In this document: positions 1,223 to 5,698 of the stretch, piece after piece
Position numbering within the stretch: the stretch's first letter is position 1
How the letters are laid out: every line of letters starts with the position of its first letter
IMG/VR virus record: IMGVR_UViG_2778261176_000002
Span: 1 to 5,698 of that record
DNA length: 5,698 nt
DNA from: a virus
Taxonomy: Duplodnaviria; Heunggongvirae; Uroviricota; Caudoviricetes
Strand: one strand, 5' to 3'
Made by a program: the position numbers and the translations under genes
The notes under the pieces: model-generated
The model's database searches: none
What the model was told of the DNA's origin: nothing
Seen by the model: only the letters and a program-made list of their open reading frames with translations

Positions 1223-1804
1223 CTAAAGTTCATCGCGCCCGATGTAGCTGATTGCCGGTCCCTTCCAAGTCTTGTCAAAAACAGCAATAGCACCAGCGAA
1301 GAAAGCGCCTGTCGGCACCTGCTTCTCATCTTTCGGGATAAACCAGGCAGGCAGTTCAAAACCAATACGCCCGCGAATAAAAGCAATATGATCTGCATCT
1401 TCCGGCCACCACACTTCGCTGGTGGCAGCTTTGATCAGGAAAACATAGCGCCCGCCCTTATCACGCATGGCACTGGCATGCTTCATGATGTAACGCATGC
1501 CGGTGATGTATTGCCCCTCATGCTGACTGGCGCGACTGTATGGTGGATTGCCAAAGGCAGCACCTTTAAGCTCCGCAAGGCGTTCTGACCAGTCACGCGC
1601 CAGCGCGTTGTCTTCCGCCGTGTAATACGCGGCACATTTGGCATTATCACCGTCAGTGAACAGATCCAGAACAAATGGGCCAAACAAGGTGTTAATTCCC
1701 CAGAAAATGCTGTCCGGCGTGCGCCACTGATCGCCCACCTCCTTCAGTTCATGGGATGGTTTGTTCCGCAGCTCCACCAGCGCCTGACAATATTTATTAC
1801 TCAT
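1223..1804 (-). CDS. Phage Dam-type DNA N6-adenine methyltransferase
   Basis: Same frame as track ORF 1223..1849, but started at ATG 1804 (MSNKYCQALVELRNK...) rather than the upstream GTG. Contains the N6-adenine MTase motif IV NPPY (AFGNPPYS). Ends at TAG 1225-1223. A GGGGGC Shine-Dalgarno-like stretch precedes the ATG. Confidence 0.8.
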   Translation of the reverse strand: MSNKYCQALVELRNKPSHELKEVGDQWRTPDSIFWGINTLFGPFVLDLFTDGDNAKCAAYYTAEDNALARDWSERLAELKGAAFGNPPYSRASQHEGQYITGMRYIMKHASAMRDKGGRYVFLIKAATSEVWWPEDADHIAFIRGRIGFELPAWFIPKDEKQVPTGAFFAGAIAVFDKTWKGPAISYIGRDEL

Positions 1805-1896
1805 TAAGCCCCCACGTAAAAAGCATCCGCAATGTCTCCGGAAGTACACCCCGGATGGGCTTCAATGAATTTCTGAACTTCATTCAAAAGACTCAT
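1804..1896 (-). CDS. Hypothetical 30-aa mini-protein (MSLLNEVQKFIEAHPGCTSGDIADAFYVGA)
   Basis: ATG at 1896-1894 lies 2 nt after the initiator stop (TGA 1901-1899) and is preceded by AGGGGGTGA with 5-nt spacing. Its TAA stop (1806-1804) overlaps the methyltransferase ATG as TAATG. Too short for the ORF track; coding status is inferred from coupling and the RBS only. Confidence 0.35.
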   Translation of the reverse strand: MSLLNEVQKFIEAHPGCTSGDIADAFYVGA

Positions 1897-3009: not shown

Positions 3010-3188
3010 AGGACTGTCTCCTTCTGCCGGTTGAAATCACCCACAGCCCACTCTGCAAAGCTGTGGGTTACAATTTCCCTGTCACCTGGTACATTCACTG
3101 CATAGCAATACTCCACCTTCGCTTTTCCACCCGGCACAGGAAGCGCAATCAGTTGCGAGCGACGGTAGTGTGTTGTTAAACTGTTCAT
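2850..3188 (-). CDS. Hypothetical protein in the frame coupled to the cII-like gene; likely genuine only in its N-terminal part (about 3188 to 3040)
   Basis: ATG 3188-3186 overlaps the cII-like stop as ATGA; GGAGAA lies ~10 nt upstream. The N-terminal ~50 aa ([52 protein letters not shown]) look protein-like. The C-terminal part (…[24 protein letters not shown]) looks like an out-of-frame read of feature 2830-3009. Confidence 0.3.
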
Positions 3189-3826
3189 GCGTTAGTTTCT
3201 CCACAACCAGAAGCAATCGACGCCACGACGCCCGGAGCTGCACACTCGCGGGCGTTACTCTTTTCCGGCGCACAAAAAACACGAAATAACAGTGTTAAAT
3301 GCTCCTGCCACTTCGCCATTACTTGGTAGCTGTTCTCTTCGATTTGCTCACGCTCAGCCTGATCAATAACTCCATCAGCAGTTGCCTTACGTAAGTACTG
3401 GGAATGCTTGCCAATCCATTCTATTGACTCCATCAGCCGCTGATTAATGTCACCATTGTCAATGTCATCAATGACCACCAGCGGCACAAACACCCCATTA
3501 CTACGACGGGCTATTGCATCCGTTACATGCCTGGTACCACTGGCATCCTGTAAAACCATGGCCCACTCGAGTGGAAAAATTTGATCCCCACCGCTACGCA
3601 GTCTGTTATGCAATTGATCTTTTGCTGGGGTGATATCATCAGATTTATACAAACCAAGAATTTCTGCTGCTTCCTCATAGCCATGAGGTAAATCAGCAAT
3701 CGTTCTTCGTATTGCTGCCACCAGCCATGCTGGCTGTTTATCAACTTTCCATTCAGGTTCTTTACCCACGTTTAAGTCCTCATATCTGTGGTTTCTGTAA
3801 ATCGATTTATCCATTAGATTTTTCAT
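3185..3826 (-). CDS. cII-like lysogeny-establishment regulator (possibly Phage_CP76 / cII-type family)
   Basis: Same frame as track ORF 3185..3883, started at ATG 3826 ([13 protein letters not shown]...); ATG 3814 is an alternative. Sits immediately after the cro-like gene, overlapping its stop, which is the cII position in lambdoid phages. The central segment [24 protein letters not shown] resembles, from memory, the conserved F-P-E-W-L-D block of CP76-type CII proteins; this was not verified by search. No good Shine-Dalgarno, so start may depend on coupling to cro. Confidence 0.55.
3190..3266 (+). ncRNA. Putative oop-like antisense RNA covering the 3' end of the cII-like gene
   Basis: Candidate sigma70 promoter on the + strand: TTGCGA (3153-3158), 18-nt spacer, TAAACT (3177-3182). 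The predicted start is near the cII-like stop and a + strand intrinsic terminator lies at 3228-3266, giving a ~75-nt transcript antisense to the last ~80 nt of the cII-like gene. This matches the lambda pO/oop arrangement. Hexamers are weak (4/6 each). Confidence 0.3.
3228..3266 (+). terminator. Rho-independent terminator-like hairpin with U-rich tail on the + strand (antisense, inside the cII-like coding region)
   Basis: Stem ACGCCCG+GAG (3228-3237) pairs with CTC+G+CGGGCGT (3245-3255) with one bulge; 7-nt loop; followed by TACTCTTTTCC. The reverse complement on the minus strand has no U tract, so the element is + strand specific. Confidence 0.4.
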
Positions 3827-4035: not shown

Positions 4036-4067
4036 CTTAATTATCAATCTATCTTAGGTCAATAAAA

Positions 4068-4083
4068 ACTAAGATTACTTAGT
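4068..4083. promoter_or_regulatory. Operator-like dyad ACTAAGATTACTTAGT
   Basis: Perfect 6-bp inverted arms ACTAAG / CTTAGT around a 4-bp centre; same CTAA-N7-TTAG geometry as the other sites. Lies just upstream of the candidate pR -35. Confidence 0.5.
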
Positions 4084-4104
4084 AATTAAAGAAATGGTGC
4101 TCCT

Positions 4105-4731
4105 ATGGAAACAGTTGGTCAGCGTATAAAAGCTCTGAGAAGGGTTACCAGAACGTCCCAGAAAGAATTGGGTAAATTTTGTGGAGTAAGTGACGTTGCT
4201 GTGGGGTACTGGGAGAAAGACATCAATGTCCCTGGTGGGGAAGCACTTTCAAAATTAGCGAAGTTCTTCAATACGTCAATAGATTACATTCTTTATGGTG
4301 CTGAGTTTGAAGGCAAACTCGTCACAAACATGCGCAGAGTTCCTGTAATCTCGTGGGTGCAGGCTGGGCAGTTTACTGAGTGCAGGACAGCAGAAGTGTT
4401 TAGTGAAGTAGACAAGTGGGTAGATACATCATTAAAGATTGGTGATAACTCATTTGCATTGGAGGTTAAAGGCGACTCCATGACTAACCCTAATGGCCTC
4501 CCAACAATACCAGAAGGCGCAACAGTGATTGTAGATCCTGATGCAGAACCCCGGCATGGAAAAATAGTCATCGCTAGACTTGATGGAACAAACGAAGCCA
4601 CAGTAAAAAAATTAGTTATCGATGGCCCTCAAAAGTTTTTAGTGCCATTAAATCCCCGGTACCCCAACATCCCGATCAATGGTAATTGCCTCATCATTGG
4701 TGTAGTCAAAGGAGTTCAATACGAACTCTAG
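4105..4731 (+). CDS. cI: CI-type prophage repressor: N-terminal XRE-family HTH, C-terminal S24 (LexA-like) autopeptidase domain
   Basis: 208 aa. HTH: TSQKELGKFCGVSDVAVGYWEK. Ala-Gly cleavage-site context VQAGQF. Ser nucleophile in KGDSMTNP and general-base Lys in ATVKKLV, all spaced as in LexA / lambda CI. Divergent from the cro-like gene. Confidence 0.9.
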   Translation: METVGQRIKALRRVTRTSQKELGKFCGVSDVAVGYWEKDINVPGGEALSKLAKFFNTSIDYILYGAEFEGKLVTNMRRVPVISWVQAGQFTECRTAEVFSEVDKWVDTSLKIGDNSFALEVKGDSMTNPNGLPTIPEGATVIVDPDAEPRHGKIVIARLDGTNEATVKKLVIDGPQKFLVPLNPRYPNIPINGNCLIIGVVKGVQYEL

Positions 4732-4919: not shown

Positions 4920-5228
4920 ATGAATGAGCAGGATTTGAAGCATGTGATCGCATTGTTGCTGGAAGACGCTAAACGTTTACAGCAGATAGAGCCAAATGCA
5001 GGCACTGAGGCCCGTATTTTGTTAGCAAAACAGGCATTAAAGACTTGCGGGGCGCAAGACCCTGATCGAACCAAGTTCATGAATTTCATGGCTAACACGA
5101 TCACCCCCCTGCCATGCAATGGAGAGAGGGTGAGCCGTGTTTATCACGACACAATGGTTAAGGCATTAAGAATCGAGCTTGATGGGCTTAGGCGTAAGAT
5201 CGTGATGAACAAAATCGTTGCCAACTAA
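4920..5228 (+). CDS. Hypothetical protein, first gene downstream of the pL-like region
   Basis: 102 aa ORF (MNEQDLKHVIALLLEDAKRLQQIEPNAGTEARILLAKQALK...VKALRIELDGLRRKIVMNKIVAN) with GGAGAG Shine-Dalgarno 5 nt upstream of the ATG. Predicted largely helical. No recognisable family and no arginine-rich N-terminus, so it does not look like lambda N. Confidence 0.6.
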   Translation: MNEQDLKHVIALLLEDAKRLQQIEPNAGTEARILLAKQALKTCGAQDPDRTKFMNFMANTITPLPCNGERVSRVYHDTMVKALRIELDGLRRKIVMNKIVAN

Positions 5229-5507
5229 GGAAGCAGACGGAAGTAAGCATGCGCTTTGTTCAAATTTGCAGACAAATATATTTGCGTCAACACCAGCACT
5301 GTTAGCAATGGAAAAAGTTTGATCAAGGATTTGTTGGCAGTTCATTGTGCTTTTGAGGATATATCCCTCTGGAATCAGTCTGCAGCAGCTATCGTCAGAC
5401 TCTTTGATTGTTTTCTGGTACAGAAAGTTAAGCATTAATTCTTCAAATTTTTTGGTCTGTTCGGCTGTTGCTTCAAACAGACGAACGTGAACATAAAACT
5501 GGTTCAT
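5166..5507 (-). CDS. Hypothetical protein, convergent with and overlapping the 3' end of the 4920-5228 gene
   Basis: Same frame as track ORF 5166..5543, started at ATG 5507 (MNQFYVHVRLFEATAEQTKKFEELMLNFLYQ...) because AAGGAA lies 6 nt upstream; ATG 5543 has only a poorly spaced GGTGG. Codon usage looks E. coli-like (CGT, CTG, GAA, CAG, AAA). No recognisable family. Confidence 0.5.
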   Translation of the reverse strand: MNQFYVHVRLFEATAEQTKKFEELMLNFLYQKTIKESDDSCCRLIPEGYILKSTMNCQQILDQTFSIANSAGVDANIFVCKFEQSACLLPSASLVGNDFVHHDLTPKPIKLDS

Positions 5508-5698
5508 TAGGTTTCCTTGCTGGCTGTGTGAGAACTCCAGCATACCACCGAGCCTGAAGTGGTGAAAAGACAGGCAATAGTTTCATTGCTGTGTGTAGTC
5601 TTGGCGCTACCAGCTTGTACCCTTGCTTCCGGCTGGTACCGTCCTTTTTACAAAACAGAGAAGAGCATCACCGGACGACGGGCTCATAACCCAATCCA

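Follow-up and report, generated by a model that had tools for sequence, protein, structure and literature searches.

Genetic organization of the locus

The window, by which the whole analysed stretch of 5,698 nucleotides from the Caudoviricetes record IMGVR_UViG_2778261176_000002 of IMG/VR is meant, is the immunity and early-right region of a lambdoid prophage. Its genes follow each other in the order repressor, Cro, CII/CP76-like, DUF4222, replication gene, a short ORF read below as a scar of yfdN, dam, rusA, and KilA-N (Table 1). In relatives, the annotations given to the replication gene are 'helix-turn-helix domain-containing protein', 'DNA replication protein O', and 'primosomal protein'. 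Beside the repressor, one ORF of 102 aa (4920-5228, plus strand) and another of 125 aa (5166-5543, minus strand) converge and overlap by approximately 60 nt. Neither has a match in Pfam, and they could be accessory genes of the immunity region. None of the complete E. coli genomes searched is colinear with the whole window, the best record reaching 88 % coverage at 97.5 % identity.

Table 1 Positions of genes and sequence features in the window
Feature	Position	Strand	Remarks
S24-type repressor	4105-4731	plus	
Cro	4007-3807	minus	
CII/CP76-like gene	3883-3185		
DUF4222	3009-2830		
Replication gene ('O-like')	1899-2840	minus	313 aa; HTH_36, E 4e-11 (Pfam); ends TTC AGG GGG TGA
AGGGGG, Shine-Dalgarno-like run	1902-1907	minus	Within the last codons of the replication gene; taken as the native yfdN ribosome-binding site
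30-codon ORF with stop	1804-1896	minus	Reads MSLLNEVQKFIEAHPGCTSGDIADAFYVGA; taken as yfdN with an in-frame internal deletion of 396 bp (pseudogene remnant)
5' remnant, yfdN codons 1-26	1819-1896	minus	MSLLNEVQKFIEAHPGCTSGDIADAF; start of the weak MarR_2-like N-terminal region
Deletion junction GCTTTT/TACGTG	1818-1819	minus	Position ambiguous by one T
3' remnant, last four yfdN codons (YVGA) and TAA	1804-1818	minus	Contains GGGGG (1813-1809) and the TAATG overlap
Phage N6-adenine methyltransferase gene dam (Dam, PF05869)	1223-1804	minus	193 aa; Pfam Dam, E 2e-45
rusA	1154-765		3' of dam
KilA-N gene			After rusA; runs off the end of the window

The ATG of the 30-codon ORF (1896-1894) lies 5 nt 3' of the AGGGGG run and 2 nt past the TGA of the replication gene (1901-1899). 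An alternative start codon, GTG at 1902-1900, overlaps the stop of the replication gene as GTGA and gives an ORF of 32 codons (1804-1902). At the other end, the dam ATG (1804-1802) begins with the last A of the TAA stop codon (1806-1804), which results in the sequence TAATG; the GGGGG run in front of it is a possible ribosome-binding site of dam. The initial annotation had described an ATG 2 nt after the initiator stop, preceded by AGGGGG, and a TAATG overlap with the methyltransferase gene, and both are confirmed by the sequence, as is the extent of the ORF (1804-1896).

Translationally coupled gene pairs with ATGA or TAATG stop-start overlaps are a common mechanism in phage early operons. 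The features required of a coupling ORF, a stop-start overlap and a ribosome-binding site at the junctions, are both present here (TAATG at 1806-1802). The ORF resembles textbook coupled phage pairs in its overlap with dam and in its upstream junction, which is one of 2 nt from the ATG or the 4-nt GTGA from the GTG, and dam and rusA of relatives are joined by the same style of overlap. Unlike in such pairs, the middle 'gene' is here only a scar, and the dependence of dam on it is only putative.

The short ORF as a remnant of yfdN

Positions 1500-2300 were compared by megablast with complete E. coli genomes and with phages. Matches of two kinds were obtained: a few were colinear, while many more consisted of two pieces that together span 1197 bp, versus 801 bp in the window. 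The 396 extra bases belong to a gene annotated as 'yfdN: PerC family transcriptional regulator', 'putative protein YfdN', or 'PerC transcriptional activator family protein', and in the longer records the annotated yfdN sits between the replication gene and dam.

An alignment was made of the window, E. coli 13TMH22, E. coli EC12 (yfdN), and phage SfII (perC). In this alignment no base differs between the window and EC12 yfdN as far as GCGGATGCTTTT; the window then lacks 396 bases and resumes at TACGTGGGGGCTTAATG. Both flanks of this single gap match EC12 yfdN as well as SfII perC, and the first 113 columns, in which the 3' end of the replication gene is included, are identical between the window and EC12 yfdN. 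Translation of the EC12 gene gives VIMSLLNEVQKFIEAHPGCTSGDIADAF, a stretch of 132 aa, and YVGA followed by the stop, while that of the window gives VIMSLLNEVQKFIEAHPGCTSGDIADAF joined directly to YVGA and the stop. What is missing are 396 bp or 132 codons, corresponding to YfdN residues 27-158 (ATG numbering). The sequence GGGGGCTTAATG was common to 52 full-length and 59 deletion copies, an upstream 20-mer was kept in 56 of 57 deletion copies, and the contexts of both start and stop are identical between full-length and deleted copies.

The gene yfdN (b2357), located in the CPS-53 prophage of E. coli K-12, is the only PerC homologue of that strain (PMC5931665). Its orthologues include gp42 of phage SfII ('PerC transcriptional activator family protein'), orf40 of SfV, and Sb43 of Salmonella phage ST64B, and the full-length gene in E. 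coli prophages and phages specifies 162-164 aa (EC12, SfII, SfV, ST64B). The first 26 residues of the short ORF are identical to those of EC12 YfdN and of many phage copies (26/26), and 25 of 26 are identical to SfII. The ORF has furthermore in common with these orthologues the last four codons, the stop, the slot in the operon, the AGGGGG start context, and the TAATG overlap with dam. It differs from them in that 132 internal codons are absent, and with them all of the PerC domain and most of the MarR_2-like stretch, leaving 30 instead of 162 aa. The PerC domain (PF06069) occupies residues 100-151 of full-length EC12 YfdN (Pfam, E 8e-9) and lies wholly within the deleted part. A weak MarR_2-like match, below the Pfam cut-off, covers residues 12-59 of the 164-aa form and straddles the junction. 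No Pfam or NCBIfam model matched the 32-aa form of the remnant, NCBIfam giving only the sub-threshold ANR_neg_reg and BilQ, and a search of PDB sequences with full-length YfdN returned nothing meaningful (best E 0.3).

The long form is the ancestral one, as judged from several comparisons. It is the commoner of the two, the interior of yfdN being present in 2583 of 5426 complete E. coli genomes versus 116 with the junction, and it bears the domain. In the more distant phage ST64B, the slot is occupied by the full-length homologue Sb43, described as similar to E. coli b2357, which in itself points to the long form as ancestral. The tblastn search with the 30-mer that had been proposed in the initial annotation gave matches in 56 phage records; in 55 of these, only residues 1-26 were matched, and the match was to the N-terminus of a full-length PerC-family protein. 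The ORF shares with the PerC family the homology over its retained parts and the position between an O-like replication gene and dam (EC12, SfII, SfV, ST64B). It has neither a PerC domain nor a length of about 160 aa: with 30 or 32 aa against 162 or 164, it is to be regarded as a pseudogene remnant of the family and not as a functional member.

All of this makes it almost certain that the 30-codon ORF is the scar of an in-frame deletion of 396 bp within the PerC-family gene yfdN and, hence, a pseudogene. In the ancestral lambdoid prophage, a PerC-family regulator of 162 aa (from the ATG) was encoded by yfdN in the slot that separates the replication gene from dam. Codons 27-158 were then lost in one illegitimate deletion of 396 bp, whose junction shows no more than 1 nt of microhomology. 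The native start, with its AGGGGG and abutting the replication-gene stop, was fused to the native last four codons and stop, in frame because 396 is a multiple of three. A point against this reading is the prior chance of one in three for an in-frame outcome. The arrangement of the ORF is beyond chance only by inheritance, as both of its ends are the native ends of the longer yfdN.

Slipped mispairing was considered as the cause of the deletion and rejected: the breakpoints show only the 1-nt T ambiguity, and an imperfect CAGG..TTAC similarity fails to yield the observed junction. As no direct repeat flanks the junction, the event looks like a one-off illegitimate deletion.

Distribution, annotation, and decay of the operon

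The exact junction was detected with a junction probe in 116 of the 5426 complete E. coli genomes, which represent varied pathotypes, and it is also present in 61 viral contigs of IMG/VR and in phage cdtI. The junction 22-mer did not occur in any of 185,579 species-representative genomes of GTDB. Some GenBank records under Salmonella names contain a variant of the 30-aa peptide. The short form is not conserved as such, most homologous regions holding the 162-aa gene (approximately 2500 genomes versus 116).

The same junction adjoins many alleles of the replication gene, with upstream ORFs of 176-353 codons, and it was found on two 5' haplotype families, each of which is also present among the full-length alleles. 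These varied neighbours and the two haplotypes fit one deletion event, after which the allele would have spread by recombination among mosaic prophages. Two independent deletions on the two divergent 5' haplotypes could in principle have given the same picture, but the breakpoints are without a repeat that might drive recurrence.

The feature is already on record, as a known and annotated remnant and not as a new gene. RefSeq/PGAP places a pseudogene at the equivalent position in E. coli 13TMH22, DCE7, and 96_1414B (e.g., BWI85_RS26145 in 13TMH22), using the GTG as start and with the wording 'hypothetical protein; incomplete; partial in the middle of a contig; missing C-terminus'. This pseudogene covers only the 5' 84 nt and is called C-terminally truncated, whereas the actual deletion is internal and in frame, with the native stop kept. 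Two hypothetical proteins of GenBank, QAZ73810.1 with 30 aa and EJE58043.1 with 32 aa, match the peptide of the window exactly and come from the same allele with the same junction, and the ORF has also been called by gene callers on metagenomic contigs.

Other inactivated alleles of yfdN were encountered as well. IMG/VR loci with premature stops leave 57, 61, or 75 aa, and phage Stx2a_WGPS2 (AP012537) carries an IS-interrupted copy. It seems that yfdN has been lost repeatedly in prophages.

A second presence/absence difference in the same operon concerns a 327-bp LexA-DNA-binding-like gene between dam and rusA, which is present in EC12, SfII, and cdtI (4043-4369, 3041-3367, and 3188-3514 of the locus records L002, L003, and L004). 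It is absent from the window (at about 1151-1154), from 13TMH22, and from 96_1414B.

The dam gene of the window carries a nonsense mutation of its own, GAG to TAG (G to T at 1225; codon 1223-1225, E194), by which the last 24 of 217 residues are lost; the normal end is at 1151. This mutation is unique among the 55 deletion-allele loci checked. Of 55 other loci with the deletion allele, 54 have the 217-aa form. The shortened Dam still covers the Pfam domain (profile positions 2-161 of 169), and its gene leaves an untranslated gap of 72 nt before rusA, where relatives have an ATGA overlap. In one contig with the deletion allele (L163, 3929-4583), dam is split into two ORFs of 95 and 137 aa, and in another (L167, 550-1829) an adjacent IS (rve transposase) shortens it to 192 aa. 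The lesions in these two contigs show the operon in further decay.

Translation of the remnant and its relation to dam

Since all translation signals of the parent gene are intact, the 30-aa peptide is probably still made. It would be inert, as the PerC domain is gone along with most of the DNA-binding-like region at the N-terminus. The deletion spared the GGGGG ribosome-binding site of dam, and ribosomes terminating at TAATG can probably reinitiate at dam, as they would after translation of full-length YfdN. The suggestion in the initial annotation that the ORF delivers ribosomes to the methyltransferase gene is possible in this sense, namely as a by-product of the geometry of the parent gene.

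It is a different matter whether the short ORF has been retained by selection as a coupling or leader ORF, with ribosomes on it opening or reaching the dam ribosome-binding site and dam depending on their passage. The TAATG overlap and the good Shine-Dalgarno site would suit such a role, but this geometry is unchanged from full-length yfdN, so that nothing in it is purpose-built. The deletion ends 15 nt before the dam ATG and spares the GGGGG run; that same run also gives dam a site of its own. None of 66 copies has the frame interrupted, and 54 of 55 loci have an intact dam of 217 aa; in the window, however, dam carries the nonsense mutation, and selection on it is not evident here. A selected leader is considered unlikely. 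The stricter proposal, that dam is translated only by way of ribosomes passing through the 30 codons, which would have become a leader by accident and then been kept by selection, is improbable as well.

The record of phage SfV (U82619.2; L160, 1076-1102) lists predicted -35/-10 hexamers of dam, TTGCGC and TACGGA, within orf40 (yfdN), at a place that falls into the 396 bp missing from the window. Should these signals be genuine, an internal promoter of dam has gone with the deletion, and dam would have to rely on upstream transcription, which favours a leader role; the promoter is, however, a weak prediction by the depositor. A promoter scan of 1500-2300 gave no sigma-70-like site, and a terminator scan of the same region gave only two weak terminator-like hairpins, on the plus strand and not above chance.

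Codons 10-13 of the ORF (UUCAUUGAAGCCC; 1860-1872, minus strand) are complementary to the ribosome-binding site and start of dam (GGGGGCUUAAUGA; 1802-1813). The deletion brought these codons (CAUUGAAGCCC) to within approximately 55 nt of the complementary dam site (GGGGCUUAAUG), and the two pair in the minimum-energy fold, which hints at a leader role. The fold of 1770-1925 on the minus strand is nevertheless no more stable than those of shuffled sequences (-45.6 versus -43.0 +/- 3.9 kcal/mol; z = -0.66), which does not point to a selected structure. No RNA family was recognised when the whole window was compared with Rfam.

The question of a functional peptide

The initial annotation also raised the possibility of an unannotated micro-protein. 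This is not supported: the feature is a pseudogene in RefSeq and a hypothetical protein in some GenBank entries, it has no family match, and nearly all of its polymorphism recurs in full-length yfdN. That the peptide nonetheless functions, for instance as a small regulator or a dominant-negative fragment of YfdN, is very doubtful. The argument for it would be that the frame is intact in every copy, that gene callers call the ORF, that variable sites are mostly synonymous (5 versus 2), and that phage cdtI, whose entry was submitted as a complete phage genome, has the allele. An open frame in all 66 deletion copies might reflect constraint; at 2-4 % divergence, however, a stretch of 93 bp has had little chance of being disrupted. 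Likewise, the 5 synonymous and 2 nonsynonymous variable sites among the 66 copies are too few, and 93 bp are without power, for a test of selection.

The synonymous variants are CTT/CTG, TTG/TTA, CCG/CCT, and GGG/GGC/GGT, and the nonsynonymous ones E6D and A30D. Changes private to the deletion copies are the synonymous GGT and the nonsynonymous A30D, L4M, C17R, and L3I. Since both main 5' haplotypes and nearly all of the variants can be seen among full-length alleles as well, they record the evolution of the long gene, and the bias towards synonymous changes would stem from selection on the long protein. The peptide has lost the PerC domain and most of the MarR-like region, its allele is a small minority next to the long form, and the other losses of yfdN, by premature stops or by the IS in Stx2a_WGPS2, suggest simple dispensability. 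Nothing in these comparisons indicates a function for the peptide.

Closest to the result among the three options of the initial annotation was the remnant of an N-terminal HTH-like domain displaced by a frameshift. The ORF is indeed the remnant of a weakly MarR-like N-terminal region, but of a separate gene, yfdN, and it owes its form to the in-frame deletion of 396 bp and not to a frameshift. A frameshift that separated the ORF as an N-terminal domain from the methyltransferase can be dismissed with near certainty: although the ORF abuts dam with a one-base overlap and the cdtI record extends dam by 15 codons into the region, that extension is in another frame than the ORF (as an ORF at 1223-1849), Dam has 217 aa and starts with MSNKY in all relatives, the Pfam Dam domain begins at residue 17, and the peptide is identical to the N-terminus of a separately annotated gene. 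Dam homologues with the peptide in frame at their N-terminus were not found, the peptide mapping to the separate gene.

In the record of phage cdtI (AB285204; L004, 2493-3191, equivalent to 1849-1151 of the window), dam starts 45 nt upstream at a GTG and has the N-terminus MYFRRHCGCFLRGGL-MSNKY. The extension runs over the scar in another frame, and the scar itself is left unannotated. Comparison with all other records suggests that this dam start is misplaced.

Concluding remarks

The explanation of the ORF is an ordinary one, neither a new micro-protein nor a frameshifted methyltransferase domain. Its biological weight is small, and it serves as a worked example of how an ORF that looks made for a purpose, with coupling at either end, can turn out to be what an in-frame deletion has left of a gene. 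Two annotations are corrected by it: the RefSeq pseudogene note 'missing C-terminus', as the deletion is internal and in frame, and the phage cdtI record, in which dam has been extended upstream over the scar. The presence of the deletion in cdtI suggests that yfdN is dispensable for these prophages.
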